38,614 nt of DNA from Pseudomonadota bacterium (GTDB lineage Bacteria; Bdellovibrionota; FAC87; UBA2466), in assembly GCA_043767805.1 (NCBI GenBank), contig JAYUGC010000043.1, positions 1 through 38,614 of the forward strand. Reading direction: 5' to 3'. Positions within the stretch are counted from its first letter, which is position 1, and the number at the start of each line of letters is the position of its first letter. The notes below the pieces were generated by a model. It made no database searches and was not told the DNA's origin. It saw only the letters and a program-made list of their open reading frames with translations. The position numbers were made by a program, and so were the translations under genes. Shown here one piece after another: positions 9,914-38,614 of the stretch.

Positions 9914-10216
9914 GTCCCCTCCTGGGATAGCTCTTTTTTAAAGGCTTTCCGGTGGTGGGTTAGTCGAAATGCCTGGGTTAATTTGGGAATCCTACTTTCC
10001 CGGTGCGGAGAGAGACAACCTAATTTAACCGCCTCGAATGGGAGGCACTACTGAACCAATCAGGAATGCCGTGTCGCGCCGCTCCCCTTCTGCCAAGGCC
10101 ACTTCGAGGGCTCGGCGTGGCCGACTGGGTGATTGTCACCCCAAATGGCATTTTGTATAGTCTGGGCGAATCCGATTTTTTCAAAACCATCCTTAACGCG
10201 GGGAATTATACCGCCC

Positions 10217-11110: not shown

Positions 11111-11129
11111 GGGGGAACTTTTTCCGCAA

Positions 11130-13864: not shown

Positions 13865-13957
13865 CCGATCTAGCCTCCTTTCCTCTTATCGAGAGGTAAG
13901 CGGAACAAGAGTACCGTCAGCACGATTTCAGGCAAGTGGGAATAGAACGCCCTAAGA

Positions 13958-15019: not shown

Positions 15020-15069
15020 TCGGGCACGCTAGCACTAAAAATCGCGGACGGTCATGGGCTCCCGCGGCC

Positions 15070-15780: not shown

Positions 15781-15784
15781 GACT

Positions 15785-16693: not shown

Positions 16694-16809
16694 GTTTTGT
16701 CGCGCCGCCCACTGAGGACAAAGATCCACGCACGAGACTTGTGGTCCGTGTCCTAGATATATAGTGTATCCGCATTGACGCCTCAACCCTTACCTGCGGG
16801 GCCCGCCGG

Positions 16810-18985: not shown

Positions 18986-19001
18986 AAAGGCGCTGACCGT
19001 C

Positions 19002-19790
19002 TCATTGTTTGATTCCCATATAGAGCCCATCGTCAATACGAGTCAGTAACAACCTAGGTGATTCCCGCAAGACATATTCATCCACGGCCCTGGCGGCGCC
19101 AGTGAAGGTTCCGTAGTCGTCGATTAAGATAACGCCACCCTTAACTAGTCTTGGGTAAAGAACTTTCATTTCTTCGGAGGTGGAACTGAACCAATCGGTA
19201 TCAAGTCTTAGCAGCGCAATTTCAGAAGGGCAGTTTGCGGCAAGAGTGTCCTCGACCATGCCTTGGACAAACCTGAATTTCTCGGCAGGATAGCCTGTCG
19301 ACAGGACGTTACGGCGGACTTCCTCGAGGGGGGAATACGCCCAGTATTTGATATCCGCTCCCGGCCCCCAATGTAGCTCGTGGAATTTCTTTGCGCTGGT
19401 TCCTTCATAGAACCGATCCGTCTCCGCTGGCTCAGGCATTCCATCGAACGTATCGAACAAGAAAATCTCGGGGCGCAATGTCTCGCCCAATTGCAAAAGG
19501 GAAAGCGCCATGGCCATGACACTTCCGCCCTTCCAGACGCCGCATTCGACGAACGAACCGGAAATGGAGTTCTGACTTATGTATTTAACCGCTAAGCAGA
19601 GATTGTAGACTCTTTCCGGAGAGGTCATCGTATAGTGCGAGACCCGATCGAGAATCTCCTTCCACTCGTCGCGAAAATCAGACGGATATGGAGCCGAATA
19701 CGGCTCCGGTTTTACGCTTTTCTTTTTCGTAATCCTGTAGCCGAAGCGATCTAATAGCTGGTGCGCCGCGATTTTAAGCATTTGATTCAT
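19002..19790 (-). CDS. TylF/MycF/NovP family sugar O-methyltransferase
   Basis: TMTS.ER, FVECGVWKGGS, LFDTFDGM, LRLDTDW, GGV..IDDYG; GAGGAG RBS before MNQ. Confidence 0.95.
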   Translation of the reverse strand: MNQMLKIAAHQLLDRFGYRITKKKSVKPEPYSAPYPSDFRDEWKEILDRVSHYTMTSPERVYNLCLAVKYISQNSISGSFVECGVWKGGSVMAMALSLLQLGETLRPEIFLFDTFDGMPEPAETDRFYEGTSAKKFHELHWGPGADIKYWAYSPLEEVRRNVLSTGYPAEKFRFVQGMVEDTLAANCPSEIALLRLDTDWFSSTSEEMKVLYPRLVKGGVILIDDYGTFTGAARAVDEYVLRESPRLLLTRIDDGLYMGIKQ

Positions 19791-22758
19791 TTCGCTCCTC
19801 GGTCTCAGCCCAAGCAAAATAGTTCGGTCGAGCCAGCGCGGGGGTTTGCTGAAGATCCTGCTTGGATAAAATCAGATCGCTTAACACCAGGGGTGGTGAA
19901 TGGGACTCCAAAACCGGAGCAATGCCGTTATTGACCCAAGGATTGGCGTGTAAATAGAAGCCGGTGTCATAACGATTTTCAATCCGGAAGAGCTGGTACC
20001 CTTGCTCGAGCCACCAGGTGATTTCCCGCCACTTTTCCGGCGCGGCTGCATTGGGCGTATATTCGAAAAGAATACTTGCCGAGTCCGGCAACTGGTCGGC
20101 GAGGGAACGCAAACCGCGCAGTACATCGGACTCGTGGCCCTCGACATCGATCTTGATCACTCGAAGTTTTTTTACGTCCTCTGGAGCGATGAGCTCCGCC
20201 GCTGGAACCGCATCCACGAAACCCTCGGCGCTTTGATTGCCGGCGAGCGGGTAATGGCTCGTGGCTCCGGAGTTCTCCGCGGGACCAGCGTATAAAGGGA
20301 GTCTTTCCTTCGCTGAAGACGCCGCCAAGTTGAAGGCCCGGCAATTGTGGAGTCCATTTAGGCGCAAGGATTCGATCAGCTTCCCGAAGATGCGCGGGGC
20401 CGGTTCCAACGCATAAACCCTTCCCGCCGCCTTGACGCGGTTGCCGGCAAGGACGCTGTAGTAGCCAATGTTAGCGCCTACGTCGAGAAAGACGTCGCCG
20501 GGCTTCAAGCTGCTTACGACGAAATTGGTAATGTAAGGTTCCCAGACCCGAAAAAAATAGAGAAAGGCGCCGATCGCATCTCCTTTTTCCAGCCGGTATC
20601 GTCCTACTCCAGGAACCTTGACCGAAGTCTCACAAAACAGGCGTTTGTAAAAACTGGGAACTTTCGAGCGATGGGTGCTCAACCAAAGTTGGCGCGAGCC
20701 ATCGAAGTAATTCTGTTTTTGACTCTCGCGAACCCACGAAAAGAATTTCCGTGAGGGAAATTTTCTCAAGGGCGAAGTCAGGGCGTTGCCGAGACGGTAG
20801 CTGGTGCTATTTTTTGTTTTCTCATGGGCTTCCTTTTCCTTTTCGCGGATCCTTTGCAGCTTACCGATCACGCCGATGGCATGTGACTCATATAGGACCG
20901 CGTGTTTACGTAGAAAACGCTTATGGAGCTCCTCGTCTGTTTGAAAAAGGGCGGCGCCGCCGGGTTCATTTGAATGAAGGAGATACTCAGGAATGATCTC
21001 AATGCCCCAACGCTTTGAGGCGATGCTTAGCCAAAAATCGTAGCTCGCGAAGCCCGTCAGCGTCTCGTCGTAGCCGCCCACCTCTTCCCAGCAGCGTCGC
21101 CGAAACAGGGAGCCCGGGGCGATATCGCAGGATACGAGGAGCCACTCGATTTCGCCGCTGGGCATCCGTTTACCGCTACTTCGCCCCCCGATGTCCACCC
21201 CGCAGGTGACTACGCCCGCCTTCGGGTTAGCTTCGAGAATCCCGACGCCTTTTTCGAGAAGGGTAGGTTCGATCCCATCTTCGGCCCCGATAGGAAAGAT
21301 AAACTCACCCCGGGCGTGCTCAATGCCAAAGTTACGCGCGGAGGAGACGCCGCCGTTCGCCATCGACACCACTCGCAGACCCGGGCCGGAAAGCCTGGAT
21401 AAGGTATCGAGCGTACCCGAATCGGTCGATCCCTCGTCGACAACAATGATTTCAAAGTTCCGAAAGGTCTGGGCCCGAAGGTTGTCGAGAGCTATTTGAA
21501 TTTGGGGACCCTGATTGAAGCAGGGAAGAATGATGGACACCTTGACGCTGCTCATGGGTGACACCTTACCCGGGGGGCCGAGCGGGTTTGGAAAGGACAC
21601 GGCTTCGTCGGTGTGCCGAGATGGCAGGGGAGTTCCCGTGAGGGCGTTTCGGCGCGCGGCGTACCAAAAATACCAGCGTTCGGTTACCAAAAAGAACAGG
21701 GCGGCAAAGGCCGCGCAGGCCGCAAGCAAAACAGCCATCGCCGCTAAAACGCCGAGAGCATTCGACGGCAGGAAATTTTCCAGATGAAAGCGCGTGTCCA
21801 TCGAGCCAAAAACGTAGCCCGTCGTAAGGTACATCGAGTACGAAACATTCCCCAGAAAGCGCAAGGGCACCCAGGAAAAGAGGCGTTTTAACGATCCTTC
21901 ACCGAAGCAGGCTTTTACGAACAGTATTGAGCTGGAGAGGCAAAAGATCGGCGTGAACCAATGATAGTCGTCGTACTTCAAGTCGGAATAACCAAAAAGG
22001 GCGGCACTGGCGAGGAAGACGCCTGCCACGAGGGCATCCGGCATCGTCGCGGCCACTTGCCGCAAGCGCGCTTCACCGATCACGGCGAGGGCACCTCCGG
22101 CCAGCATCATCCACCAGCGCGGCATCGGACCGAAGACGAAGCAGCAGCCCGCGACGACAAAGAGTTGCAGCGCCCGCCAGCCCAAGGTCGACTTTCGCCG
22201 ATTCAGCCCGACGAACATCAGAAGGGGAGCCGCCAGATAAAAGGTCCATTCATAGAACAACGACCAGGACCAGGGGTTGAGCTCGAACATGCTGAACCGA
22301 TAGCCGGGAATGCCGTTCAGAAAGAGAAGATTTTTGACGATCGTCAGCGCGGACACCTCACTCCACTTCGCCGGGTATTTGAGCAAAAATCCGAGCAATA
22401 TCATCGCAACGAAAGTGGGATAGATGCGCATGGCCCGATGTAAAAAGAAAGTTCCCAGCTCGGAGAGTGAGGTTACCTTGGTCTTTTTCAATAGGCGGAA
22501 CACTAGAAAGCCGCTGAGCAGAAAGAAGATATCGACCCCGTACTGGGACCTTTGGAGCAGGGAAAGGGCGGCTTCCACAGTCTTTCCGCCTTTCAACGGC
22601 GTATAGAAATGGGTCAGGAAAATCAGAAAAATGGCATAGCCCCGAAGGCCTTCCATCGCGGGGTTCCGCGTCCGCTTCGAATCCAATAGAAAAATCTGAC
22701 GAAAAATACGCGCCAAGTCGCCAAGATAGTGCCCCACACCAATCCTTCCGAATATCAA
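19774..22758 (-). CDS. Fusion: acyltransferase-3 + GT2-like domain + short coil + FkbM-family methyltransferase
   Basis: AT3: EGLRGYA, GVDIFFLLSGF, RIYP, WSLFYEWTFY, LGNVSYSMYL. GT2: VSIILPCFN, NGGVSSARN.GI. FkbM: FLDVGANIGYYS, ALEP, IKIDVEGHE. Confidence 0.9.
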   Translation of the reverse strand: MIFGRIGVGHYLGDLARIFRQIFLLDSKRTRNPAMEGLRGYAIFLIFLTHFYTPLKGGKTVEAALSLLQRSQYGVDIFFLLSGFLVFRLLKKTKVTSLSELGTFFLHRAMRIYPTFVAMILLGFLLKYPAKWSEVSALTIVKNLLFLNGIPGYRFSMFELNPWSWSLFYEWTFYLAAPLLMFVGLNRRKSTLGWRALQLFVVAGCCFVFGPMPRWWMMLAGGALAVIGEARLRQVAATMPDALVAGVFLASAALFGYSDLKYDDYHWFTPIFCLSSSILFVKACFGEGSLKRLFSWVPLRFLGNVSYSMYLTTGYVFGSMDTRFHLENFLPSNALGVLAAMAVLLAACAAFAALFFLVTERWYFWYAARRNALTGTPLPSRHTDEAVSFPNPLGPPGKVSPMSSVKVSIILPCFNQGPQIQIALDNLRAQTFRNFEIIVVDEGSTDSGTLDTLSRLSGPGLRVVSMANGGVSSARNFGIEHARGEFIFPIGAEDGIEPTLLEKGVGILEANPKAGVVTCGVDIGGRSSGKRMPSGEIEWLLVSCDIAPGSLFRRRCWEEVGGYDETLTGFASYDFWLSIASKRWGIEIIPEYLLHSNEPGGAALFQTDEELHKRFLRKHAVLYESHAIGVIGKLQRIREKEKEAHEKTKNSTSYRLGNALTSPLRKFPSRKFFSWVRESQKQNYFDGSRQLWLSTHRSKVPSFYKRLFCETSVKVPGVGRYRLEKGDAIGAFLYFFRVWEPYITNFVVSSLKPGDVFLDVGANIGYYSVLAGNRVKAAGRVYALEPAPRIFGKLIESLRLNGLHNCRAFNLAASSAKERLPLYAGPAENSGATSHYPLAGNQSAEGFVDAVPAAELIAPEDVKKLRVIKIDVEGHESDVLRGLRSLADQLPDSASILFEYTPNAAAPEKWREITWWLEQGYQLFRIENRYDTGFYLHANPWVNNGIAPVLESHSPPLVLSDLILSKQDLQQTPALARPNYFAWAETEERNESNA

Positions 22759-23001
22759 AATCGGTCTGCCCCAGTAGAGGAAAAAACTACCGCCTCCGAG
22801 GGGACGGTTTGCGATATTACCGTATTTAGCTCTGACGCCACGCTCGGCGCGTCAGACCCCTTTTGGCCTGTGCCGCTTCGACAAAAGTTCGTCTTAACTT
22901 TGCGGAGGTGGAAAATTAGGTGAGAGTATTTTACGCTCCCCGGGCATCGAAAACGTAGGGGGAGAAAAGCAACGTCGCTTGCCCTCTGAAGAGAGGATAA
23001 A

Positions 23002-23922
23002 TTGCTTAACCGGATATTTCAGTGGCTGGACAACAGCGCTTTGGCTCAAATCCTCCGTCGCAATCCTAAGTCCGCTTCGGCGGAATTTTTTCCTTTTTTC
23101 AAAGGCAGGCGCAGCCGGGTCTTAAGTCGTGGCCATGTCCGGACTCACACCAAAATCCTGAGACGCCCTTTGCCGGAGACACCAGAACGTTGCCCGATAG
23201 ATGGGCTGGCCGTTCCTCCCGCCGCGTATTTCATGGGATACGACACCAATCCAGCCCAGTATCTTGAATCGGGACGACGGGATTTCCAATCCATGAAGTC
23301 GATTCTCGCGGGCGCGTGCTTCGACCTCGATAGGGGCAATAAGCGTATTTTGGATTTCGGTTGCGCTTCGGGACGGATGCTTCGGGCTTTTACCGGATTG
23401 ACGCAACCACACGAGCTTTGGGGCGTGGACATCCGCGCCGATCTCATTCTTTGGAGCCAGCTCCACTTGAGTCCTCCCATGAGATTCGCGACCGTCACGA
23501 CCTTTCCCCATCTCCCCTTTGAAGATCGAAGTTTTGATCTGGTCTATGCCGGGTCCGTTTTTACCCATATCGGGGACCTCGAGGATATGTGGCTCCTGGA
23601 ACTGAGACGCCTTTTGAAGCCGGGTGGTTTTCTGTTCGTTACGGTGCACGACACCCATACGATCGACCTTATAATCAGCAGCCACCCTGGCGAATCACTG
23701 CATACGAGCCCGCTCCGCAGTGATCTGCGCCGCTTGAAGATGCTAAAAGGTTCACCGACCCGCTTTCAGATGGCTACCATCGAGGATGAGCGGGGCACTC
23801 AAGTGTTTCACGATCGCGATTTCATTCGCAAGCGATGGGGACAGTACTTTGAAGTTCAGGGCATCCACTCTGAAGGCCACGATTATCAGACGGCGGTGGT
23901 GCTGACCAAAGAGCTGGCCTGA
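23002..23922 (+). CDS. Class I SAM-dependent methyltransferase (Methyltransf_11-like)
   Basis: ILDFGCASGR, WGVDI, LPFEDRSFDLVYA.SVFTH, LKPGG; TTG start with GAGGA RBS. Confidence 0.92.
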   Translation: MLNRIFQWLDNSALAQILRRNPKSASAEFFPFFKGRRSRVLSRGHVRTHTKILRRPLPETPERCPIDGLAVPPAAYFMGYDTNPAQYLESGRRDFQSMKSILAGACFDLDRGNKRILDFGCASGRMLRAFTGLTQPHELWGVDIRADLILWSQLHLSPPMRFATVTTFPHLPFEDRSFDLVYAGSVFTHIGDLEDMWLLELRRLLKPGGFLFVTVHDTHTIDLIISSHPGESLHTSPLRSDLRRLKMLKGSPTRFQMATIEDERGTQVFHDRDFIRKRWGQYFEVQGIHSEGHDYQTAVVLTKELA

Positions 23923-23932
23923 AACCGCCCAT

Positions 23933-24841
23933 TCATTGAACCGAGCGAGCGCCTCGTCCTAGCACAAATCCAGCGGCGCCGACCGCGGCCATCGCCCAGG
24001 CGACGGTCACCACGGATAGGATCCGGGGCAGCGGGGCTTTGCCGAAGTTTTCCCTCAGAGTAACCGCGACAAAATAAGGATTGAGATGGCGGATATGGGG
24101 CTTGGGCTCCAAAAAAAAATCGCGCGCCGGTCGTCCGTGGTCCACGGTGCACGAGCCTTTACTGAAGGCAATTCGCCAGACTTTTTGGACCAGTCCTTTC
24201 CAGGAACGGACCGGGTGACGTACGCGGGCGTTGTCGGCGTAAACGAGCCGGTAGCCTTGGCGCGTGGCACTCCGGGTAAATAAGGAGTCGCCGTTCCAGC
24301 CTACGTTAGCGGGAAAACCACCGGTGGCGTTCACCACCGCTCGGGTTACCAAGAGATTCGCGGTAAAGGCCACGCCTCTTTTTTCGACACTGTCGGAGTG
24401 GCGCAAGAAACTTATCGAGTCATATACCTGAGCGGAATCCGGCTGCTTGGGGAGATCAAAATCGATGCGTCCCGCCACCAAGTCGGCTGCTTTCGCTACC
24501 AAACGTTCCACCGCGCTCTCGAGCCATTGAGGGTCCGGTAAACAATCGCCATCCGTAAAAGCGAGGAGGTCCCCTTGCGCCGCGGCGATTCCGGTATTGC
24601 GGGCAGTATCGGCATTGCGCACTCTGGTTTCGAAGACGATCCGGGTCATCCCTTGCGCGTATTTCGAGGCGAGGCTGGCTGTCCCGTCTGTCGAATCGTT
24701 ATCGATGAGAATGACTTCATAATTAGGATAGGACTGGTTTTGCAGGGCCGCGAGGAGACGGGGAAGCCGCTCGGCCTCGTTATGCAGCGGCACGATTACC
24801 GAAACCAAGGGACGAGATTTCGAGTTGTCGCTTGTGTGCAC
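23933..24841 (-). CDS. Glycosyltransferase family 2
   Basis: VSVIVP, IDNDSTDGT, ARNTG, AFTDGDC. Confidence 0.92.
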   Translation of the reverse strand: MHTSDNSKSRPLVSVIVPLHNEAERLPRLLAALQNQSYPNYEVILIDNDSTDGTASLASKYAQGMTRIVFETRVRNADTARNTGIAAAQGDLLAFTDGDCLPDPQWLESAVERLVAKAADLVAGRIDFDLPKQPDSAQVYDSISFLRHSDSVEKRGVAFTANLLVTRAVVNATGGFPANVGWNGDSLFTRSATRQGYRLVYADNARVRHPVRSWKGLVQKVWRIAFSKGSCTVDHGRPARDFFLEPKPHIRHLNPYFVAVTLRENFGKAPLPRILSVVTVAWAMAAVGAAGFVLGRGARSVQ

Positions 24842-26859: not shown

Positions 26860-27609
26860 ATGGGAGGCCGAGTGAACCGATCTAACTCAAATTTTTCGGC
26901 ATCGCGGTGGCTTATTGGGCTTTTAGTGCTCGCTACTCAGGCGTTCGCTCTCATGGATAATCCGTCGTCCGAACAGCTGGTGATAAATGAAGTCTCCGTA
27001 AATGGCGAATCGGCGACCTTGGAAATGGCGAGCTTCAGCTCTGGAGAGGAGCCTTCCTTAAAGACTCAAATTACCGAACGCGACGGTATTCCTCGGTTGG
27101 CGGTTTGGGTAATGGGTCTTCAGTCGCATTTCATGGCGAATCCCGCGAAACTCGGAAAGTCAGACGTTTCCAAAGGGTCGGGAAAGATCTTGGCTGCGAA
27201 GCTGCGAAGCATCGCTCTAAAGCTCGCCCTGGAAGAAAAGAAATGGTCACTTTCCGCTCGTACGCGCGCGCTGGCGCAGCAGGTAGATGGAAGAGGGCAG
27301 CGGCTTACTCACGGCTGGATCGCCGAGAATTTGAATCCTTGGTTTCGTGAAGTGTTTGCCAGTCAAAAATACGCGGTAAAAACGTTCGAGAGTAAAACGG
27401 TTCTCGCCGATATTCAGTCGAGTTTACTCGATAGCGAGACCCAAAATCCGATACTGAAAACGCAGCTGGAGCAATTTATCGCGTGCCTGCCCGACAAACC
27501 GATTTCTAAGTCCGTTCCCCAGCTGGCCGCGACTGGATTTCCTGTGCCGCCCCATCGCACCGCTCTGAAAATCTCGGTGTCCCCAGCCGTACTCAAAAAA
27601 ATTCAATGA
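26860..27609 (+). CDS. Hypothetical protein, probably secreted
   Basis: 249-aa ORF with signal-like segment RWLIGLLVLATQAFA; start uncertain. Confidence 0.7.
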   Translation: MGGRVNRSNSNFSASRWLIGLLVLATQAFALMDNPSSEQLVINEVSVNGESATLEMASFSSGEEPSLKTQITERDGIPRLAVWVMGLQSHFMANPAKLGKSDVSKGSGKILAAKLRSIALKLALEEKKWSLSARTRALAQQVDGRGQRLTHGWIAENLNPWFREVFASQKYAVKTFESKTVLADIQSSLLDSETQNPILKTQLEQFIACLPDKPISKSVPQLAATGFPVPPHRTALKISVSPAVLKKIQ

Positions 27610-27674
27610 GAGCCGTGCGGTGACGGGGATCGAGAAAGCGCCACCTGTTTGCGGCTGATCGCACTTCTGATCGG

Positions 27675-28664
27675 CTAGACAGCTTGGCGAAGGCGCATCC
27701 AGTGCCGGAGCTGAAATAGGACCACCAGCCCGACAAAATACCCAATCCATCCCACGTTGCTGTGAAACGCCCAGCCTACGAATTGATATCCCGTCCCGTA
27801 ATCGTGCTCTACGAGATAGAGGCCTATTAAGAAAAAGGAAGCAATTCGGAGCGCGTTGAGTAAAAACATCGCGAATATTCCGGCGACGAACCATGAGATT
27901 TCGAACCTCATTCCCCGCGCCGGTTTTTCAAAAGTACGGATGAGCAGCAGAAAAAAGGAAAAGAAAAAAATTCCCTCCAGTCCGCTACAAGCGATAGCGA
28001 TATTTGCCGACATTTTCGGATGCCGAAGCAGTATTTGGCTGGTGGCGCTAACCCGCGTGGTAACTCCGAAGGCGTGCAGGAGTACACTGACGATTTGGGC
28101 GGTGAACTGGGCCATCGGAATCCAGGCCCATTTAAGAAAAATGGGGTAACCCACCAATAGGATTAATCCGAGGCTGGGATAAATGATTTTAGATCCGAGC
28201 TCTCTCGTGGCTTCGAGCCAGGTGCGAGGGGCCAAGAAAAGAAAATAGCTCGAGGCGAGGGCGCCCAGTCCGAAAAGAAAAAAGAGCGCCATGGCCCAGC
28301 CCGTCTCGGAAGGGGTGGCAAATTCCGCCTGTGCCGCGAAGATCGCGAGGGCACAAACTAAAAGAAAAAAGTTTAGAAGCACGGGACCTAAAAAAAACCG
28401 GGGTGCGAGTCCCATCTCTCGCTGTAAATGACACACGTAGAGAAAAATTCCGAGAAAAAGCGGAAACAGGACATCGCGTCCATACATCCCGAAAGCGGTA
28501 TTGTTAGGGCCGAAACGCGCCACGACGAAAGCGTGGAGAATAAAAAGCTCAACGATAGAGGGCAAAACGAAAAGGGCGCTGATGAACAGGCCGTTCAGCG
28601 AAAAATGGAAAGGCGAATGAATCCGATGCACGACTGTGCTTTTTTGAGAAGGAAAGTCATTCAT
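27675..28664 (-). CDS. Exosortase/archaeosortase family protein (XrtE-like core)
   Basis: About 8 TM segments; Cys-Arg-His triad in IAIACSGLEG, LNALRI, AFHSNVGW. Confidence 0.9.
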   Translation of the reverse strand: MNDFPSQKSTVVHRIHSPFHFSLNGLFISALFVLPSIVELFILHAFVVARFGPNNTAFGMYGRDVLFPLFLGIFLYVCHLQREMGLAPRFFLGPVLLNFFLLVCALAIFAAQAEFATPSETGWAMALFFLFGLGALASSYFLFLAPRTWLEATRELGSKIIYPSLGLILLVGYPIFLKWAWIPMAQFTAQIVSVLLHAFGVTTRVSATSQILLRHPKMSANIAIACSGLEGIFFFSFFLLLIRTFEKPARGMRFEISWFVAGIFAMFLLNALRIASFFLIGLYLVEHDYGTGYQFVGWAFHSNVGWIGYFVGLVVLFQLRHWMRLRQAV

Positions 28665-28726
28665 GCTACAGTTATTGTTCCTCGTCTTGGGAAGCTATGC
28701 AATCTACGGTTAAGGAAAGACAACCA

Positions 28727-29677
28727 ATGAGTTTCCCTCTGGCCGGCAAATGGTTGTCGATTTTGGCTCTTCCGCTCGTCGAAGTCGTTCTTTTCATGGT
28801 CTTCACCGGGGGCAGCCAGCCTCGCGGGTTTCGATGGACCTATCTCGATTTGCTTCTCCCGGTTCCTACCGCTTTTTTTGTTTTAATGTTTTTACTGGAA
28901 ACAGGAGCGCCGTGTCGCCTGAGTTTTCAAAAGGTCGCTTTGGGCGTGAATGTCGCGGCCCTGGCGTTGGCTTTTGGGGTTCATCCCTGGCCGCCGGTAG
29001 TGGCCGTCGCCGTACTTAGCGCCTTCTGTGTTTGGGTGGATCCACGCTATTTTTTAAAGAACCCCAATCGTGCCGCCATTCTTCCTTGCGTTCTGCTTGC
29101 CTTCTCCGTCGCACTCTATACGAACCTCCCCAAAAGCTGGTACGACGGCATCGGAACGTTAACCTCAAAGGTAACTGGTGGCTTGGTAGCTGCCTTCTTC
29201 GGCAACGAGATGCAGTCGAGCATGGCGGGTACGACCCACCTACGGCTGACTCTGGGAACTTTTGTCGCGCGGGTCAGCAAACCGTGTTTGGGATTCGATG
29301 GATTCTTCTATTTTACGGTGGTGTTTTTGCTTTTGTCGGCGCTTTACCGTAAGGGCCTTCGTCTGGTTCGTTGGACTGGCGGGTTTTTTCTTGGGCTTTC
29401 GATGATTTTCTTTTTGAACGTGTTGCGTGTGGTGCTGCTCATCAGCGTTGGCGCTTGGGCCCAAAATGCCTTAGGCGCAGAGGCGGGCGGCCAACTTCTC
29501 AATTCCATCGTTCATCCGCACTTGGGTTGGTTGCTTTATACGCCCGGTATCCTTCTCTACATGCCGTGGTGCCTGCGCATGGCCCACGCCAGAGATCGCT
29601 TCGGGGTTCTCTTTCAAGGCTTCCTTGCGGAGTTGGCATCTTGCTTCGCGGTGATTAACCGAAAAGGCCAACCATGA
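28727..29677 (+). CDS. Second, divergent exosortase/archaeosortase family protein
   Basis: Multi-TM; VSKPCLGFDG, LNVLRV, IVHPHLGW align with the first paralogue's triad; AAGGA RBS before MSFP (ORF extends to 28697). Confidence 0.85.
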   Translation: MSFPLAGKWLSILALPLVEVVLFMVFTGGSQPRGFRWTYLDLLLPVPTAFFVLMFLLETGAPCRLSFQKVALGVNVAALALAFGVHPWPPVVAVAVLSAFCVWVDPRYFLKNPNRAAILPCVLLAFSVALYTNLPKSWYDGIGTLTSKVTGGLVAAFFGNEMQSSMAGTTHLRLTLGTFVARVSKPCLGFDGFFYFTVVFLLLSALYRKGLRLVRWTGGFFLGLSMIFFLNVLRVVLLISVGAWAQNALGAEAGGQLLNSIVHPHLGWLLYTPGILLYMPWCLRMAHARDRFGVLFQGFLAELASCFAVINRKGQP

Positions 29678-30081
29678 TTGTCGCGAAGGGAAAGCGGGGA
29701 AGGTTCAATTCCGGGTGGCTTTGGTTAGCTATTTTGTGGCTTGGCTTCCTGCTGTCCACTTCGAGTCTAATGGCAGCCAATTGTGGTGAATTTTGCTCCG
29801 ACAACACGGATTGTACAGGCACCTGCGCCTACTGTGACGGAGGCGCGAACTGCGCCGACTGCTGCGATCTTCCCGACCAAGATTCCTGCGGTCTAAACCC
29901 GGGTTGTATCTGGTCGACGAGCGAATGCCGAAACGGCACTACTCCCTGCGGCGTAGTTAGAGAACTTCCCTGGCCCTTTAAGTACTATTTTTTTGGTGGA
30001 CTTTTCTTATTTTCCCTTGCCGGATCTCTCCTTCTGGTGCGCTCTCGTTCGTCGAACGCGGATCAATCCAATAAATCCTGA
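29674..30081 (+). CDS. Small Cys-rich exported protein with CTERM-like sorting tail (probable exosortase substrate)
   Basis: Signal peptide, 12 Cys in about 56 aa, then VRELP + hydrophobic helix + RSR; ATGA overlap with the exosortase gene. Confidence 0.85.
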   Translation: MIVAKGKRGRFNSGWLWLAILWLGFLLSTSSLMAANCGEFCSDNTDCTGTCAYCDGGANCADCCDLPDQDSCGLNPGCIWSTSECRNGTTPCGVVRELPWPFKYYFFGGLFLFSLAGSLLLVRSRSSNADQSNKS

Positions 30082-30276
30082 CGCTTGCGCTCTATAAACG
30101 GTTTCCTGTTTTGACAGAACGCACCTTTTGAAAAGCGCGTAGGGGGATAGAATTATGATATTCATTCGGTGCATTCGCTTTGATTCGTCCCATTGAATGC
30201 ATCGGATATCGAATACAAAACTTTTACGTGATCTACGTAGGACGAAATTCAAATAACACCAGGAGACGATCTAATC

Positions 30277-30984
30277 ATGAAGGCAAAAAATGGGTTGGCA
30301 GTTTTTGCGCTAGTAGCGATGGCGCTAGCGTTTGGCGGTAGCAGGGCGGCTTTTGCCGTCAATTGCGTGGATGTCGGCGTGGCGACCGTTCCATGTGATT
30401 TCACTCGCGCTACTTATACGGTACTAGCTTCGGCCGCGTGTCGCATGGCGGAGGATTTTGAATTCGTCGGGTCAGACGATGAGACGCGTGTTGGTAATGC
30501 TCGCAAAGACAGCTCTTGCCGAAGTAAAGCCGACGATTCCGATCACGTCGGTTGCTGGGCGGCCGTTCAGGGCACTCCCGCGACGACTACCGGCGGCGGT
30601 TGCGCTCATCATAATCTCAAGCGCTGCGCGATGGCGGCGTCGCATCATCGCAAATTGCCCAAATGGTGTATCAGCAATCCGCCTCCGACTCTTACGGGTG
30701 CTGATTTTTACATCTACTGCAGAGACGTCTACGACAATTGCTATGCGACCTACGCCAACGATGCGACGGCACTTGCCGCGTGTAACAACGATGCGAACAC
30801 GGGTTGGCCCGCGCTTCTGGCCGATTACGACACGGCTAACACTGTCGGATCGGCGAGCTGTACGGCGACCCGTTGCGGCGTAAACGATTGGTGCTGCGGC
30901 ATGAGCGCTACCACCGGTTACCCGTTGCCGAATGACGGCAATTGCACGGGTGGCTTAAGAAAAGCTCCGCTTCAAAAGAACTAG
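30277..30984 (+). CDS. Secreted Cys-rich protein (16 Cys)
   Basis: Signal peptide ending AFA, AGGAG RBS, downstream terminator; no C-terminal TM. Confidence 0.85.
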   Translation: MKAKNGLAVFALVAMALAFGGSRAAFAVNCVDVGVATVPCDFTRATYTVLASAACRMAEDFEFVGSDDETRVGNARKDSSCRSKADDSDHVGCWAAVQGTPATTTGGGCAHHNLKRCAMAASHHRKLPKWCISNPPPTLTGADFYIYCRDVYDNCYATYANDATALAACNNDANTGWPALLADYDTANTVGSASCTATRCGVNDWCCGMSATTGYPLPNDGNCTGGLRKAPLQKN

Positions 30985-31016
30985 ATAGCTGAGGCTTTGC
31001 CTCTTATAAGTCGCGT

Positions 31017-31063
31017 AAAGGGGCTGGGACCGAGAAATCGGGACCCGGCCCCTTTCGCTTTTG
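31017..31063 (+). terminator. Rho-independent terminator
   Basis: AAAGGGGCTGGG...CCGA-GAAA-TCGG...CCCGGCCCCTTT followed by a T-rich tract. Confidence 0.75.
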
Positions 31064-31088
31064 TATTCTTGGCGTACAGTAGTTGCCT

Positions 31089-32576
31089 ATGACAAGAGAG
31101 CGATCGACCGGGCCCTCCATACTAGCCCGCCCGGTTTTTCTAAAAGCAGTGCTTTGGGCGTTGATTCTTTGGTGGCCGGTCTCCGCTTTGACCGAGTCTT
31201 TATACCGGGATTCGGATATCTGGTTTCATCTCCGTACGGGACAATGGATAGCCGAGCACGGAACCGTTCCTCGAACGGATCCCTTCTCTTCCTACGGCGA
31301 AGGCAGGCCGCTTACGGCCTACAGCTGGCTCTATGAGCTCGGTCTCTATCAGCTTCAGCATTTCGTCGGATTGACCAGCGCGCTTCTCATGTATCGCTTC
31401 GCTCTAGTACTCGGCATATTGGCCGTTTGGTATCGAGCGGTCCTTCGCCGAGGCGTTCCGGTGGGAAGCGCATTTGCCCTGATGGGCACGGCATTGGTAA
31501 CGGTACTGCCGCTACTCTACGAGCGGCCTTGGCTGGTTTCCATTTTGTTTTTTGGCGTCATCTGGGAAATTGTGACTGCCTTTAAGGAGGGGGAAACCAA
31601 GGCGCTGTGGTTTTTGCCCGTCCTCTTTGCGCTTTGGGCGAATATTCACATTCAGTTCGTCTACGGGCTTGCTCTCTTGGGAGCCGCCCTTGTGTCCGTT
31701 CCCATCGACCATTTCTTTTACCCCGACGAAGGGCCTATTGATTGGCGCCGGGTTAAACAACTTACCTTGGTGTCTCTCGCTTGTATCGCCGCTACTGGAA
31801 TCAACCCCTACTTCTTTGGCCTTTATGAAACAGTCTGGGAGTACGGTCAGCAGAAGGCACTTATCGATCTCGGAGCCCTGACAGAGTTCACGGCCCCGCT
31901 TTTTCGCAGCCTTTCGGACTGGGCCTTGCTTGGCTTAGTTATCGCGACCGCCTTTGCGCTTGGCAGAGGTCGGCGCTTAAGCTCCTTTAAAACGCTATGC
32001 TTTGGCTTTACCTGTTTTCTTGCTTTTCGATCGGTCCGAGACGTGTGGACGGTAGTGGTCGTTGCCGTTTTGATTCTTGCCGAGTCGCTGGGCAAGTGGC
32101 GTCCCGCGCCTCGTCCTATCCTAATTCGGTGGGGATCTGAAATCGCCTGCGCAGGTTTAGCTCTAACCGCGGTTTTTCTCTATTGGGGGAATGAACGAGA
32201 GGTATTCACACGCGGGCTTACCGTCGCTGACACTTTTCCCGTCCGGGCCTTGGATTTTTTGGAAAAGCGAAACGACACGGGCATTATTTTTAATCCGTTT
32301 AGTTTTGGTGGATACGTTATGTGGCGTTTGCCGAAGATGAAAGTTTCCATAGACGGTCGAACCAATGTTCACGGCGTTGAAAGAACGCTTCGCTATAAGC
32401 AGCTCATGAGTACGGGCGTTGGCTGGGAGCACGAGCCGGATCTGAGCCGCGCGCACCTCGTGCTCTGGCCGAAACGGGCTCCGCTTTCCGCCCAGCTCGA
32501 GAGCAGCCAAGACTTCAAACGCATCTACGAGGACGGCAATTACGCTGTTTTTGAGCGAATCCCCGTCAGGTTCTAA
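31089..32576 (+). CDS. Polytopic membrane protein, GT-C-fold glycosyltransferase-like
   Basis: DSDIWFHLRTG.WI..G.VP..DPFS, YSWL, ERP, LWANIH, INPY, EF.AP; extracytoplasmic C-domain with GGY..W and IDGR. Confidence 0.72.
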   Translation: MTRERSTGPSILARPVFLKAVLWALILWWPVSALTESLYRDSDIWFHLRTGQWIAEHGTVPRTDPFSSYGEGRPLTAYSWLYELGLYQLQHFVGLTSALLMYRFALVLGILAVWYRAVLRRGVPVGSAFALMGTALVTVLPLLYERPWLVSILFFGVIWEIVTAFKEGETKALWFLPVLFALWANIHIQFVYGLALLGAALVSVPIDHFFYPDEGPIDWRRVKQLTLVSLACIAATGINPYFFGLYETVWEYGQQKALIDLGALTEFTAPLFRSLSDWALLGLVIATAFALGRGRRLSSFKTLCFGFTCFLAFRSVRDVWTVVVVAVLILAESLGKWRPAPRPILIRWGSEIACAGLALTAVFLYWGNEREVFTRGLTVADTFPVRALDFLEKRNDTGIIFNPFSFGGYVMWRLPKMKVSIDGRTNVHGVERTLRYKQLMSTGVGWEHEPDLSRAHLVLWPKRAPLSAQLESSQDFKRIYEDGNYAVFERIPVRF

Positions 32577-34259: not shown

Positions 34260-37200
34260 ATGCGAATTAAAGCAATTCATACCGCAGCTATACTTTTTCT
34301 TACCTTATTTAGTGGTTTCGCCCGCGGGGAGCAAACCTGCCTGATGGTGGCGCCGACGTACCAGCCGGGCACCTACGATAATTTTAATGCGCAGCTTACG
34401 ACGGGTAGCTACTCGTACGGCGAAGGTTCTGCCTATTACGGTTACTCAGGCATCAACCGCTATCGGTTGAATGCGGGAAGTGGCAGTTACAATTCCAGAG
34501 TCGGCGTGGACCGTTATGGGATTACGTTTGGCGCCTTTCAGATGTTTCAAGGTATCATCACGCCGAATTTCTTCACGGTCGTGTCTTCGAATAGTAATTT
34601 TTGTTCTAGCGCGGACAATAGTGCTCAAAGTTTCAACTGGATCTTGGTTCGCGCCCGGACTCCCGACGTTACGAGTACGAATGTCGGTCAGGGCCCGATG
34701 GACGCGACTGCCTCTACGTTTGAGGTAGGCGGAACTTTTACGTACAACCCAACCTCAAACGTGTCGTTTACGAGCACAGGGTATTTCGGTTTTGACGGCG
34801 TTGCGAATGCAGCCAGCTTTTCCCTTGATCGGTCTGTTACCGGTGGTTGCTTGAACGGCGTGATGAAAACCGTCGCCAACCCCGTTCCGACCCTGCCCAG
34901 TAACGGTATTTTGGATAAGAGCGGCAACGTCTACTTAGATAAAGAGCGGTTCGTCTACATAGGTACTGGTGGAAACCCCGTTGTGGCAGTCGGCGCTAAG
35001 GTAGAGGATTTAAACGCGTCGACCAAGTGGGCCGATCTTTCGAGAAACGGATTTTCCGGAATCTACACCGAGTTTTTGACGGGAAGCACGCAGACGAAGA
35101 TGAGCGTTCTCATCGTTCCTTCTACGGTGACTGCCGGAACGGCCAATCCGGTGATGCCTGGCGCGACCACGACAGTAGTAAACGGAACGGAATTTTACTT
35201 TTATGAAATGCCCGCTGCTTCTCACGTAAGCGCGTATTCGAACCCGAGTTTGGATATCTCGGCGGGGAGTTACCGGGGCAAGTTTACCTGTGCGACGGCG
35301 GCGCGCAACACTCCTAGTAACGGATTTTGTAAGGGCAAGCTCTATGCTTCGGACGGCGTAACGAACGCCGAGGCAACTTGTTTGTTTGGAACGGCCCCGT
35401 CTTACTTGATGAGCTGCATGATGCAAAAGCCGGGTACGCCTTCGAAAGCGGTCAGCATCTTGGCGACCGTTCCGACCCGATCAATTTTGGCGGTTAGTGT
35501 AAGTCCGATCACCTCGGAATTGGCATCCGCGGGCACTGCTTTACTTACTGCGACCGTCACCAATCTCACGGGTAAAGAGGCAACCGCCATGGGCGATCCG
35601 GCCCTTAGTGTCGACCGGCTGGCAGCTCCCTTTTCTTACGATGGACTCGGCGCTTACGCTACCAACGGCGGAACCTGCGGCACTACTTTAAGAGGTTTCA
35701 CCAACTGCACGGTGAAGCTTAAATACACTCCTACTCAGGACGGAGCCGTATTCCAGACTTATAAAATTGCCTACAACAACGGGTCAACAGTGGTCAATGC
35801 GACGGCGCCCCTCCGTGGGATGTGCGGTTTAAAGAGTTTAGCTATTTCCGGCGGCTACGGCTACATGGTTGGTTCATTGCCGACGCTCACCGCTCTGGCT
35901 CAGTTTAACGACGGCAACGTGCAAGATGTTTCCGCGGCTGTCAGCTGGGGTAATCTGGAATCTTTAGTAGCTGATACCGTAAACGGCAGCACCACTCTTA
36001 CGGTCGCCTCGTCTGCCGGCTTAATGGGCAAGGCCATCTCGGGTCCAGGCATTCCTTTGGGCGCGACGGTTACAGCGATTATCGACGCTACCCACGTGCA
36101 GATCTCCGCTGCGGCGACACTGACGGCGAGTGCGGCTCAGCTTTATTCCACCAACATGGAAATTTCCGCGTCCTCTCAAGCCACTTTTCTGAGCAGCGGG
36201 GATCAGACGGTCAAGGCTTGTTTGGGCGTATTCGATGCAAACGGCAGCTGCCCTGGCAGTTCCGGTTTGTTAGTGCAGAAAACGCTTACGATCAATCCCT
36301 ACGCGGGAAGCTTTGGTCAAGTCGTTCTCGGTCAGGCGAATGTATCCAACGTGCAGGATTTTACGGCGAGCGCGCCTAACAGTGTGAATGTGATTCCCCC
36401 TGGCGCTACTACCACCCCCTCGTCGGCTTCCCTTAAGACCCCTCGCCACATGTACTCAGACGGCAAGCGATTCATCGTGGCCGACAGCTTGAATCATCGG
36501 GCTCTTATCTGGGATACCGTACCTGTTTCGAGTTTTACCGCCACGCGGACCAGTGGAAGCGCCATTCTATCGGCGATTTCTCCGACGGACATGGCCCGTC
36601 TGAAAGCGGGGGTTGTCATTTCCGGTACAGGTGTTGTGGCCAATTCTACTATTCTCTCGGTTAATGCGGGCGCTTCGCAAGCCACGATGTCGAGTAATGC
36701 GACGGCCTCGGGGACGAGTGTTTTAGGCGTGTTTAGATACGCGGCGGACTCGGTGTTGGGTCAGACGACCATGAACTTGAACACCCAGCTTGGCTTCACG
36801 CCGACTCCGAATTCAAACGTTACTAATGCCACCGCCTCCACCCTGGGAACTCCGACCTCTGTGTGGATCGGCGGCAATCGGGCTGCGGTATACGACACGA
36901 ACTTTAATCGCGTTCTTCTTTGGGATTCGATAACCGACGCTATGACTCCTGGCACTGCCGCGGACATCGTACTCGGGCAGCCCGACTTCACCTGCGGTTC
37001 CATCAATACGGGCTCTTCGTGTAATACGCCGTCCCCCGCGGCAGCCGCCAATACCATCTATTCCTATCTTGCTTCTCGCTCTGGATTACTCGCCTACGAT
37101 GGCATGAGGCTCATCGTATCCGATCCGCAAAATAATCGAGTGCTTGTTTGGAACAAGTATCCGGTGAGTTCATTTACGGGAACCAGGGCAGGTACTGCGA

Positions 37201-38614
37201 CGATTACCGGCGTGTCGGCATCGGATATTCTCAATGTCAAAGTGGGTGCGGTCATCAGCGGTACGGGAGTTGCGGCGGGAACCCTAATCAATAGCGTGAA
37301 TGTGGGCCTTGGAGAGGTCGTCTTGTCTGCTGCCGTTACGGGTAGCGGATCAACGGTGTTTAGAATGAACCGCCATCCCGCCGATGTGGTGCTTGGGCAA
37401 GCGAATTTTAGCGGTAATCTCGCTAATCGCGGCGCCCAGCCAAGCGCCGTAACTATTAAGAGTCCGGGAGCGGTCTATTCGGATGGCACACGCCTTTTCG
37501 TAGTGGACGCTGGTAATCGTCGAGTTCTTGTCTGGAAAGATATTAACGCGTTTCCTCTGACAAGTGGCGCCCCCGCCGACGTGGTACTCGGACAGAGCAC
37601 CTCCAATTCAGACATCGTACTTTATTCCCAGTCAGGAATGGGCCAACCCGAGGCGCTACACTCCGACGGAAAACGACTTTTTGTGGCGGATGGTACCCGT
37701 GTCCTTGTTTACAACGACATCACCGCTCTTTCCACCGGAATGCTCGCCGATCAGGTGTATGGTGAGCCCAATTTTAATTCTTTCAGTGGTGGGCTTTCCG
37801 CAACTAGCTTCGGAAACGTAAGCGGCGTATTTTCGGATGGTACGGATCGACTGTATGTCTCAGATTATAATAACAGCCGAGTGCTCTCCATCGCTCTCAC
37901 CGGATCGGGAGCTGGATCTCTGGCCTCACTTAGCATCGGCGATAGCAGCTATGATTACGGTTCCGTGGTCCCTGGACTTGCCAAAGAGCATCTTTTCCTG
38001 ATCACCAACAGCGGTAAAACCCCGGCGACTTCCGTGGCGTTTACCTTTTCCGGTTCAGGCGTGCCCTATAACTATAAAGGGGGCAGCTTCCCTGGAACGA
38101 GCGGGACCTGCACGACAAACGGGGTCGTCCTTCCGAATTCGAGCTGTACTATCAACGTTGCCTTTTCTCCGCCCTCAGGCGCGACTTTAGGCACCAGCTA
38201 TCCTGGAACGCTTACCCTCAACTATAACAATGGAAGTGGTAATGCGACTCCCGTCGTGTCGAATCTTAGCGGTACTGCCGACAAGGCAGTCTTATTGTTA
38301 AACGACGGGGCTACCAATATCTCGGCGGGTACTTACGGGTATGGCACTGCGATTATCGGAACCCCGGTTAGCAAAGTCTTTACCTTGACCAATACGTCGA
38401 CCACCAAAACGGCGACCACTCTTCAGGCGACGGCTAACCCCGCCAATTTGCTTCTTGCTCCCTTCGCCTTTGCTGGCACCGGCGGCTATTTCCCGGGTGT
38501 GGGCGGTACATGTAGTGCAACGGCCGCAGTTGTCGGACGTGGGGGTGGCCGCGAACTCCCCGCGATCGATGCGCTCTGCGATTTGTTTCAGCTGCGCCCA
38601 GCCCGCCTCGCCGA
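34260..38614 (+). CDS. Large secreted surface protein (>1450 aa, 3'-incomplete): choice-of-anchor-D/ASH-like Ig domains, Big_2-like domain, NHL-repeat beta-propeller
   Basis: Hand translation from ATG 34260 (AGGTGGTG RBS, signal peptide MRIKAIHTAAILFLTLFSGFARG), frame open to the window end; FPG..GTC...CT..V.F.P Ig motifs; repeats ADxVLGQ...DG.RL.V.D..N.RVL.W. Confidence 0.92.
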   Translation, partial: MRIKAIHTAAILFLTLFSGFARGEQTCLMVAPTYQPGTYDNFNAQLTTGSYSYGEGSAYYGYSGINRYRLNAGSGSYNSRVGVDRYGITFGAFQMFQGIITPNFFTVVSSNSNFCSSADNSAQSFNWILVRARTPDVTSTNVGQGPMDATASTFEVGGTFTYNPTSNVSFTSTGYFGFDGVANAASFSLDRSVTGGCLNGVMKTVANPVPTLPSNGILDKSGNVYLDKERFVYIGTGGNPVVAVGAKVEDLNASTKWADLSRNGFSGIYTEFLTGSTQTKMSVLIVPSTVTAGTANPVMPGATTTVVNGTEFYFYEMPAASHVSAYSNPSLDISAGSYRGKFTCATAARNTPSNGFCKGKLYASDGVTNAEATCLFGTAPSYLMSCMMQKPGTPSKAVSILATVPTRSILAVSVSPITSELASAGTALLTATVTNLTGKEATAMGDPALSVDRLAAPFSYDGLGAYATNGGTCGTTLRGFTNCTVKLKYTPTQDGAVFQTYKIAYNNGSTVVNATAPLRGMCGLKSLAISGGYGYMVGSLPTLTALAQFNDGNVQDVSAAVSWGNLESLVADTVNGSTTLTVASSAGLMGKAISGPGIPLGATVTAIIDATHVQISAAATLTASAAQLYSTNMEISASSQATFLSSGDQTVKACLGVFDANGSCPGSSGLLVQKTLTINPYAGSFGQVVLGQANVSNVQDFTASAPNSVNVIPPGATTTPSSASLKTPRHMYSDGKRFIVADSLNHRALIWDTVPVSSFTATRTSGSAILSAISPTDMARLKAGVVISGTGVVANSTILSVNAGASQATMSSNATASGTSVLGVFRYAADSVLGQTTMNLNTQLGFTPTPNSNVTNATASTLGTPTSVWIGGNRAAVYDTNFNRVLLWDSITDAMTPGTAADIVLGQPDFTCGSINTGSSCNTPSPAAAANTIYSYLASRSGLLAYDGMRLIVSDPQNNRVLVWNKYPVSSFTGTRAGTATITGVSASDILNVKVGAVISGTGVAAGTLINSVNVGLGEVVLSAAVTGSGSTVFRMNRHPADVVLGQANFSGNLANRGAQPSAVTIKSPGAVYSDGTRLFVVDAGNRRVLVWKDINAFPLTSGAPADVVLGQSTSNSDIVLYSQSGMGQPEALHSDGKRLFVADGTRVLVYNDITALSTGMLADQVYGEPNFNSFSGGLSATSFGNVSGVFSDGTDRLYVSDYNNSRVLSIALTGSGAGSLASLSIGDSSYDYGSVVPGLAKEHLFLITNSGKTPATSVAFTFSGSGVPYNYKGGSFPGTSGTCTTNGVVLPNSSCTINVAFSPPSGATLGTSYPGTLTLNYNNGSGNATPVVSNLSGTADKAVLLLNDGATNISAGTYGYGTAIIGTPVSKVFTLTNTSTTKTATTLQATANPANLLLAPFAFAGTGGYFPGVGGTCSATAAVVGRGGGRELPAIDALCDLFQLRPARLA
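36318..37895 (+). repeat. Six NHL-like protein repeats (beta-propeller blades)
   Basis: VVLGQAN, ADSVLGQT, ADIVLGQPDF, ADVVLGQANF, ADVVLGQS, ADQVYGEPNF, each followed by an (S)DG.R..V.D..N.R.L-type strand set. Confidence 0.85.

Follow-up and report, generated by a model that had tools for sequence, protein, structure and literature searches.

The 38,614-nt contig JAYUGC010000043.1 (GenBank assembly GCA_043767805.1), assigned by GTDB to Bdellovibrionota; FAC87; UBA2466, carries two exosortase genes in head-to-head orientation, which we refer to as paralogue 1 and paralogue 2. The term window denotes this entire 38.6-kb contig (C43), which belongs to a 4.52-Mb assembly of 204 contigs (G000) with a marker completeness of 100%. 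We propose that paralogue 2 and a Cys-rich protein of 135 amino acids (aa) encoded next to it constitute a one-enzyme, one-substrate cassette, and that paralogue 1 is a separate, old paralogue lying beside this cassette in this lineage only. We estimate the probability of this explanation at about 65%. Judged from their sequences, both enzymes belong to an uncatalogued subfamily of stand-alone exosortases of ~315 aa that is related to XrtE and ArtC. A preliminary description of the locus had suggested an unnamed subfamily and, for the pair, a heterodimer or distinct substrates. The first suggestion is supported and can be extended by a cognate signal and substrate, whereas the heterodimer or twin-system reading is unsupported.

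The gene for paralogue 1 lies on the minus strand (27675..28664) and represents an intact open reading frame (ORF) of 329 aa. Paralogue 2 is encoded on the plus strand (28727..29677) by an intact ORF of 316 aa, which would extend to 326 aa (28697..29677) if the first ATG were used. The divergent intergenic region between both start codons (28665..28726) comprises 62 bp, or 32 bp with the first ATG at 28697. We consider ATG 28727 the more likely start because AAGGAAAG is located 5 nt 5' of it, the protein collection lists paralogue 2 as a 316-aa entry, i.e. with start 28727, and the N-termini of homologues line up with this position. The start of paralogue 1 is backed by the aligned N-terminus of its homologue P0002, and a homologue with 45% identity shows the same N-terminus and motifs. 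The divergent exosortase pair is thus confirmed, and the reported gap of 62 bp is correct with start 28727. The promoters of both enzyme genes must overlap, either mutually or with adjacent coding sequence. One sigma-70-like site was detected on the plus strand at 28644-28672, which is weak evidence, as the region 27300-31200 contains 5 such sites compared with 2.4 ± 1.6 in shuffled sequences. The direct repeat AAGGAAAG(T/A)CA is present in copies at 28649 and 28712. We also noted a 16-codon upstream ORF (28663-28713, plus strand) with its own AAGGAAAG Shine-Dalgarno-like box, which is one copy of this repeat. The ORF stops right where the Shine-Dalgarno box of paralogue 2 starts, and it could encode a leader peptide or have arisen by chance.

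Both proteins passed the generic exosortase signature TIGR04178 (cut-off 23 bits), paralogue 1 with 36.2 bits (E 5.6e-9) and paralogue 2 with 38.1 bits (E 1.4e-9). A search of the whole genome with this model retrieved the two window enzymes and a third one on contig C105. The conserved Cys, Arg and His residues are the proposed catalytic triad of the superfamily, as stated in the Haft 2023 preprint. According to the family alignment, the candidate catalytic residues of paralogue 1 are C226 (27987-27989), R273 (27846-27848) and H301 (27762-27764) on the minus strand, with the motifs ACSGLEG (CSGLEGIFFF), NALRI (LNALRI) and FHSNVGW. Those of paralogue 2, likewise aligned, are C187 (29285-29287), R234 (29426-29428) and H263 (29513-29515) on the plus strand, with the motifs PCLGFDG, NVLRV and VHPHLGW. 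All six motifs, which the preliminary description had quoted as evidence for the triad, were found in the translations. C226, R273 and H301, together with G228, G231, N270, G305 and W306 (paralogue 1 numbering), were invariant in an alignment of 15 family sequences; across 129 members, R273 was invariant and C226 and H301 were conserved in at least 90%. The two paralogues share 24% identity over 188 aa (E 2e-9).

For a broader comparison, 91 family ORFs from fetched loci were condensed to 66 distinct sequences. We kept 59 rows with at least 240 profile positions (52 bacterial and 7 archaeal) and dropped 7 partial ones. The residue following the catalytic Cys in the 52 bacterial rows is Ser (31), Gly (7), Ala (5) or Leu (1), with 8 rows unparsed. 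The sole Leu is L188 of paralogue 2, whose only close homologue carries a Trp. The atypical Cys-Leu-Gly of the second enzyme, pointed out before, is therefore real and, as far as the alignment indicates, specific to the small lineage of paralogue 2, the clade otherwise having Gly or Ala. Members of the superfamily are polytopic integral membrane proteins composed mainly of helices. An AlphaFold2 model of paralogue 2 was largely helical, with a mean predicted local distance difference test (pLDDT) score of only 58.9 from a 4-row alignment. A profile search of the PDB with the family profile returned no matching chain.

None of the named Xrt/Art models of NCBIfam release 20, which was used for the model scans, came near its own cut-off with either window enzyme. 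The best matches were XrtO (30.3 of 250 bits) and XrtX (26.3 of 170) for paralogue 1, and XrtE (29.3 of 150 bits, E 4.3e-7) and XrtH (22.5 of 86) for paralogue 2. This negative result is meaningful because two genuine XrtE/protease proteins scanned in the same manner reached 184.6 and 208.2 bits (XrtE cut-off 150). Pfam yielded nothing at E <= 1 for either enzyme, so that Exosortase_EpsH, EpsI and CPBP/CAAX domains are absent from these proteins of ~320 aa, in agreement with the earlier claim. They also differ from the XrtA/EpsH-type PEP-CTERM enzymes in matching neither TIGR02602 nor TIGR03109 at E <= 1. Matches to PF02517 were located on contigs C103, C74 and C158 of the genome, and none on the window contig. 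In sum, only the generic signature was passed, by both enzymes, and the notion of an unnamed subfamily stands. The suggestion that the first enzyme resembles the XrtE core needs to be changed: the weak XrtE match belongs to paralogue 2, although the distant sequence matches of paralogue 1 do include XrtE/protease fusions.

A word-based search returned 18 proteins for paralogue 1, including itself (best identity 45%), and, among 5.8e9 proteins, a single homologue besides itself for paralogue 2 (P0020, 57%). The closest genomic relatives of paralogue 2 showed 39% and 37% identity. With the 15-sequence profile, 2237, 882 and 187 cluster representatives were found at E <= 1e-3, 1e-10 and 1e-30, respectively, among 1.84 billion searched; most were 300-340 aa long. 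The signature model was matched strongly by 128 of the 129 aligned members and the named models weakly, namely ArtC by 38 (best E 1.5e-11), XrtX by 25, XrtE by 20 (best E 3.1e-11) and XrtH by 12. From the relation between E-values and bits, we infer that none of these matches exceeds ~45 bits, well short of the cut-offs of 86-250.

The family is concentrated in the order to which the window belongs. At E <= 1e-8, 34 of its 38 genomes (including the present one) matched the profile, with 1 to 7 matches each. Of 301 genomes sampled evenly across the phylum, those with matches at E <= 1e-20 all belong to this order; its two families had matches in 28 of 33 and 3 of 4 genomes, compared with 0 of 263 sampled genomes of other families. 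The closest titled loci derive from metagenome-assembled genomes of uncultured Pseudobdellovibrionaceae, Bdellovibrionaceae and 'Deltaproteobacteria', the more distant ones from metagenome-assembled genomes of other bacteria and from DPANN-type archaea. Two profile scans of metagenome contigs found no closer relatives. Among the matches listed, literature searches on exosortases and Bdellovibrio gave nothing on this topic, and those on VPEID-CTERM and exosortase E gave nothing relevant.

The candidate dedicated substrate is encoded by an ORF of 135 aa on the plus strand (29674..30081), whose start overlaps the stop codon of paralogue 2 as ATGA. The protein consists of a signal peptide, a ~56-residue domain with 12 Cys residues (C37...C92) and a sorting tail. 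The putative C-terminal sorting signal (29959..30048, plus strand, read from the translation) comprises the motif R96-E97-L98-P99 (29959-29970), a hydrophobic helix of 19 residues, Y104-V122 (29983-30039), and the basic cluster R123-S-R125 (30040-30048). Criteria for such a tripartite architecture are given in the Haft 2023 preprint. A hidden Markov model (HMM) of the class 1 substrates defined below matched this ORF as the sole one of the genome (2.2e-33), and in an alignment its tail corresponds to those of 9 homologues, which have the form (P/S/A)E-phi-P. The protein matched no Pfam or NCBIfam family, and no NCBIfam model at E <= 10. We also considered a hybrid tail, i.e. a class 1 body with a class 2 tail, and rejected it, as the tail scored 5.1 bits with the class 1 tail HMM and -2.5 bits with that of class 2.

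The AlphaFold2 model of the substrate (pLDDT 70.8, ~80 over the Cys-rich core) predicts a small, β-rich and disulfide-dense domain. Foldseek found no match in the PDB at E <= 0.001. The best rows (E 1.2-8), which provide a lead only, were cystine-knot mini-proteins and Dickkopf N-terminal domains, and the ESM Atlas was uninformative (best score 0.75). At position 30059, the second base of substrate codon 129 after the basic cluster, contigs of all three sequencing runs in which the stretch was found have an A instead of the C in the window, which changes an Ala to an acidic residue.

Enzyme-substrate neighbourhoods of this kind recur across the family. We searched for small ORFs within ~1.5 kb of the exosortase genes (2.5 kb in a re-scan) whose C-terminus comprises a motif, a transmembrane (TM) helix and a basic cluster. 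E-phi-P or P-E-phi was accepted as the motif. Such a neighbour was present in 32 of the 52 bacterial rows, 3 of which were added by eye or with a looser motif. The tail usually reads (V/A/I)PE(L/I/V/F)P, followed by the TM helix and the basic cluster. As a control, the tail pattern was found in 31 of the 56,327 stop-to-stop ORFs of the genome, which corresponds to ~0.03 expected per 4-kb neighbourhood. A stricter pattern retained 5 of 49,312 ORFs, and just the two beside exosortases look like genes. The substrates fall into three classes: class 1 (14 rows) contains proteins of ~130-137 aa with 11-16 Cys residues, class 2 (13 rows) shorter 'CC...(V/A/I)PELP' proteins, and class 3 (5 rows) Cys-free proteins ending in (A/I/V)PE(I/V)P. 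The Haft 2023 preprint describes a 'dedicated' sorting system by the regular adjacency of one enzyme and one target. With 32 of 52 neighbours against a background of 31 in 56,327, and with the ATGA overlap in the window, the family fits this description.

The closest relatives of paralogue 2 follow the same pattern. The genes of the 39%- and 37%-identical enzymes are each convergent with a gene for a substrate orthologue of 137 or 130 aa. All 12 Cys residues as well as E97 and P99 are invariant between these and the window substrate, and the orthologues have GLPETP and GLPEVP in their tails. A class 1 substrate with 12-13 Cys residues adjoins the enzyme in 5 of the 6 rows that form the paralogue 2 clade. 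The third family member of the genome, on C105, adjoins a Cys-rich ORF of 106 aa ending in APELP, a TM segment and RNKRRK. Several further genes were observed around such cassettes. Next to the cassettes closest to that of paralogue 2, two genomes encode a secreted protein whose His/Cys motifs are caspase-like (YCGHG ... TDACG; L057 2578-3432 and L058 1-837). At L011 (2655-7075, minus strand), four tandem paralogous secreted proteins of ~340 aa are encoded between two family exosortases. A CPBP protease as a regular partner was considered and rejected, as 1 of 201 neighbour ORFs passed the motif filter (L012), in addition to a truncated ORF at the end of C105. This CPBP/CAAX-type protease gene beside the C105 cassette seems to be split; the part at the C105 end (L003 2248-2631) probably continues on C158 (3-272).

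In a maximum-likelihood tree of the 59 rows (quick search, SH-aLRT support only), the bacterial family was separate from the archaeal rows (SH-aLRT 100). Paralogue 1 and the C105 copy grouped in a clade of 17 rows (SH-aLRT 98), and paralogue 2 fell outside that branch, in a clade of 6 rows (SH-aLRT 92). Because the two enzymes belong to different deep clades, their relationship points to an ancient divergence rather than a recent duplication, and the deep divergence assumed previously is borne out by both the identity and the tree. The end branches of paralogue 1 and paralogue 2 have lengths of 1.65 and 1.32, respectively.

Paralogue 1 has the longest end branch of the three copies in the genome and no private substrate, as might be expected of a decaying or functionless duplicate. 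However, its 329-codon frame is intact, all eight family-invariant positions (C226, G228, G231, N270, R273, H301, G305 and W306) are kept, and the 45%-identical homologue retains the same N-terminus and motifs, so that we regard decay as very improbable. Alternatively, paralogue 1 may serve targets in trans, either the class 2 'CC...APELP' substrate of C105 or types outside the tail models, its position in the window being incidental. The C105 enzyme is a member of the same 17-row clade, in which 9 rows adjoin class 2 substrates; the 6 rows without an adjacent substrate (e.g. L046 and L047) imply that substrates in trans or of unknown type exist in this clade. On the other hand, an enzyme of its own is already encoded next to the C105 substrate. 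Moreover, a search of the 56,327 ORFs with two substrate HMMs and a tail HMM gave matches at the window locus and on C105 only and disclosed no further tail-bearing ORF, even though an assembly of 204 contigs could miss a substrate despite its marker completeness. We therefore think action in trans rather unlikely. A marginal match of the class 2 HMM on contig C62 (E 0.011) lacks a TM tail at the C-terminus and does not qualify as a substrate.

The nearest relatives of paralogue 1 in other genera display a different but conserved gene order, an operon in L046 and L047, with an outer-membrane-protein-like gene, a gene for an NHL-propeller lipoprotein and the exosortase gene in succession and no tailed ORF. 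In L046 (108-1492) and L047 (113-1489), the products directly upstream of the exosortases are an outer-membrane-protein-like protein of ~181 aa and an NHL/beta-propeller lipoprotein of 273 aa. The two might be substrates or partners of that subclade.

The preliminary description had proposed a search for conserved divergent pairs. We found no immediately adjacent enzyme pair in the 37 other genomes of the order, where the nearest pairs on one contig were ~5 kb (two cases in one genome) and ~12 kb apart. Just one of 20 titled loci holds two copies, which are convergent and separated by 5 kb. Apart from the present genome, the genus is represented by one other, whose sole family match is orthologous to the C105 copy. 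Since pairs elsewhere are at least ~5 kb apart and none is adjacent, the head-to-head twin is a feature of this genome and not of the family. We conclude that the locus represents a small sorting cassette accompanied by a further enzyme and not a conserved twin-enzyme machine, and that paralogue 1 is not an obligate partner of paralogue 2. For the proposed heterodimer, an arrangement present in 0 of 37 other genomes of the order offers no support; a complex prediction for the two paralogues scored 0.02, which gives no answer and is not evidence either way. Distinct substrates are not visible, as the locus has one recognisable substrate and the genome two for three enzymes.

From the layout of the cassette, we infer the following sequence of events. 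The 135-aa preprotein would be exported via its signal peptide, whereupon the 12-Cys domain would fold and form disulfides in an extracytoplasmic location, the C-terminal helix keeping the preprotein in the inner membrane. Paralogue 2 would then cleave at R-E-L-P, the counterpart of (V/A/I)PE-phi-P in its relatives. In line with what has been proposed for the superfamily, the mature mini-protein would probably be passed on cleavage to an acceptor in the envelope and thereby be retained at the cell surface. Paralogue 1, a member of the other clade placed back-to-back with the cassette, is probably co-expressed through the 62-bp region.

Several observations weigh against this explanation. No adjacent tail-bearing ORF was found in 19 of the 52 family rows, although many of the flanks extend over just 1.5 kb or are truncated at the end of a contig. 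Within its class, the window tail diverges most, with 5.1 bits against the class 1 tail HMM compared with 15-57 bits for the others (leave-one-out), and has an Arg where its relatives have Pro, Ser or Ala. The placement of paralogue 2 (SH-aLRT 92) is not among the starred clades. The genome contains three enzymes and two recognisable substrates, leaving paralogue 1 without a private one. Furthermore, the enzyme of L011, from the larger paralogue 1 clade, adjoins a class 1-like substrate with the tail GVPELPLW. This substrate matches that of the window at E 0.003, and V-P-E-L-P-L-W resembles V-R-E-L-P-W of the window. Hence the class of a substrate does not strictly follow the clade of its enzyme, and the 135-aa protein may also be a target of paralogue 1.

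Both enzymes might accordingly process the single 135-aa protein together, in a redundant manner, sequentially (cleavage followed by transfer or re-anchoring) or as a hetero-oligomer. The numbers of enzymes and substrates and the L011 pairing speak for such joint action. So do the location of both enzyme genes less than 1 kb from one substrate gene with a common 62-bp control region, the unusual divergence of both enzymes and of the tail, and the bulky Leu after the catalytic Cys of paralogue 2. Yet the adjacent pair has no counterpart in the other genomes of the order or the titled loci, the relatives of each paralogue occur as single-enzyme cassettes, and the closest homologues, P0002 (contig of 5941 bp) and P0020 (contig of 1473 bp), are both singletons, each from a short contig of its own. 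We hold joint action to be rather improbable and rank it second, after a separate paralogue with probable co-expression. Less likely again is a more specific scheme, in which one enzyme cleaves R-E-L-P and the other, with its Cys-Leu-Gly, completes or redirects the transfer, the order-restricted family with its PE-phi-P tails representing a new sorting signal. If this is true, the locus with its three genes would serve as a model for identifying the acceptors to which exosortases attach their cargo.

The explanation also depends on the join between the two genes. The stretch was found in three runs of a single study of sediment metagenomes, and none of the runs listed was RNA. Two contigs cross the join, that of the window and one of 6205 bp from run X1, the latter produced with another assembly pipeline, and no mismatch was observed there. 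In runs X2 and X3, the contigs end at 28670 and resume at 28870, leaving 28671-28869 uncovered. Because these contigs break between the genes, the join is without independent confirmation; it is bridged in run X1 alone, which is possibly the source sample, and this, too, counts against our explanation. The exact coincidence of the breaks with the space between the genes would suit an assembly artefact linking two separate loci. Apart from the two contigs that cross the join, however, there were no reports of loose ends or alternative joints, and depth is similar on both sides (5.2 versus 6.2, and 5.1 versus 5.6-6.6), which makes an artefact highly improbable.

By enzyme sequence, XrtE, ArtC and XrtX are the closest named groups, all well short of their cut-offs. 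Among the known sorting systems, that of XrtE (TIGR04162), with its VPEID-CTERM sorting signal, resembles the new family in several respects. XrtE was the best named model for paralogue 2 and for 20 of the 129 family members, the (V/A/I)-P-E-(L/I) of the family shares the first four positions with V-P-E-I-D, and at a genuine XrtE locus (L015) the product of a small neighbouring gene ends in PEID and a TM segment. In contrast, paralogue 1 did not match XrtE at E <= 1, and paralogue 2 fell far short of its cut-off. The window enzymes are devoid of a fused CPBP/CAAX protease, a separate CPBP gene being adjacent at C105 and L012 only. The fifth motif position is Pro in the family but Asp in VPEID, and the window tail reads RELP. 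The sorting-signal scan cannot exclude kinship with VPEID-CTERM, as the PEID-tailed neighbour of the true XrtE matched no model either.

Exosortase J (TIGR04199) likewise combines one enzyme with one small neighbouring target. Its PExPT-CTERM signal (TIGR04200) has the form P-E-x-P(-T), and some family tails read PEIPTN or PEVPTN, one PEVPTN tail giving a weak match to TIGR04200 (16.5 bits, E 0.0055, cut-off 40). Unlike exosortase J, however, the window enzymes did not match TIGR04199 at E <= 1, nor did 7 family enzymes at E <= 10, and the model was listed by 1 of 129 family members (5.7e-5). The window substrate did not match TIGR04200 at E <= 10, and the substrates described here carry a domain with 6-13 Cys residues. 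Archaeosortase C (TIGR03762), whose sorting signal is PEF-CTERM, was the most frequent named model across the family, and the archaeal relatives L013 and L020 have neighbours ending in A-(A/V)-P-E-F, a TM segment and RRK. Neither window protein matched it at E <= 1, however, and the family is bacterial and forms a clade apart from the archaeal rows. Exosortase X (NF046081), a dedicated enzyme accompanied by a tiny secreted substrate with PID-CTERM, was weakly matched by the window enzymes (26.3 and 15.3 bits) and by 25 of the 129 members. These scores compare with a cut-off of 170 bits, and the XrtX model has ~168 positions as against ~315 aa for the window enzymes.

Most exosortase systems have dozens of substrates. 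A single enzyme with one Cys-rich substrate of ~100 residues could be reconstituted and studied by mass spectrometry much more readily, and the second enzyme at the locus could serve as a natural specificity control. One-step transpeptidation by exosortases is not established, according to the Haft 2023 preprint. As the subfamily and its PE-phi-P tail matched no model of NCBIfam release 20, they could be curated as a new enzyme-signal pair, and the family, found in one order within the sampled phylum, may mark a lineage-specific surface feature.

Upstream of the exosortase genes, the window contains a large glycan-synthesis cluster (8052-24841). It encodes seven family 2 glycosyltransferases (GT2), one family 4 glycosyltransferase (GT4), methyltransferases of the TylF, FkbM and class I types, an ABC exporter (11130-12962) and a weak radical-SAM-like ORF. 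The cluster also includes a fusion protein of 994 aa with acyltransferase_3, GT2 and FkbM methyltransferase domains (19774-22758, minus strand). Exosortases are often found in such loci, as noted in the Haft 2023 preprint. Downstream of the substrate gene, the plus strand encodes a secreted Cys-rich protein of 235 aa without a sorting tail (30277-30984) and a polytopic membrane protein of 497 aa (31083-32576). These two proteins had no match in Pfam or NCBIfam and were not observed beside the enzymes most closely related to paralogue 2. An ORF of more than 1451 aa (34260-38612, plus strand), which is open at the contig end and shows faint matches to NHL and Cep192-like repeats, probably encodes a giant surface protein.

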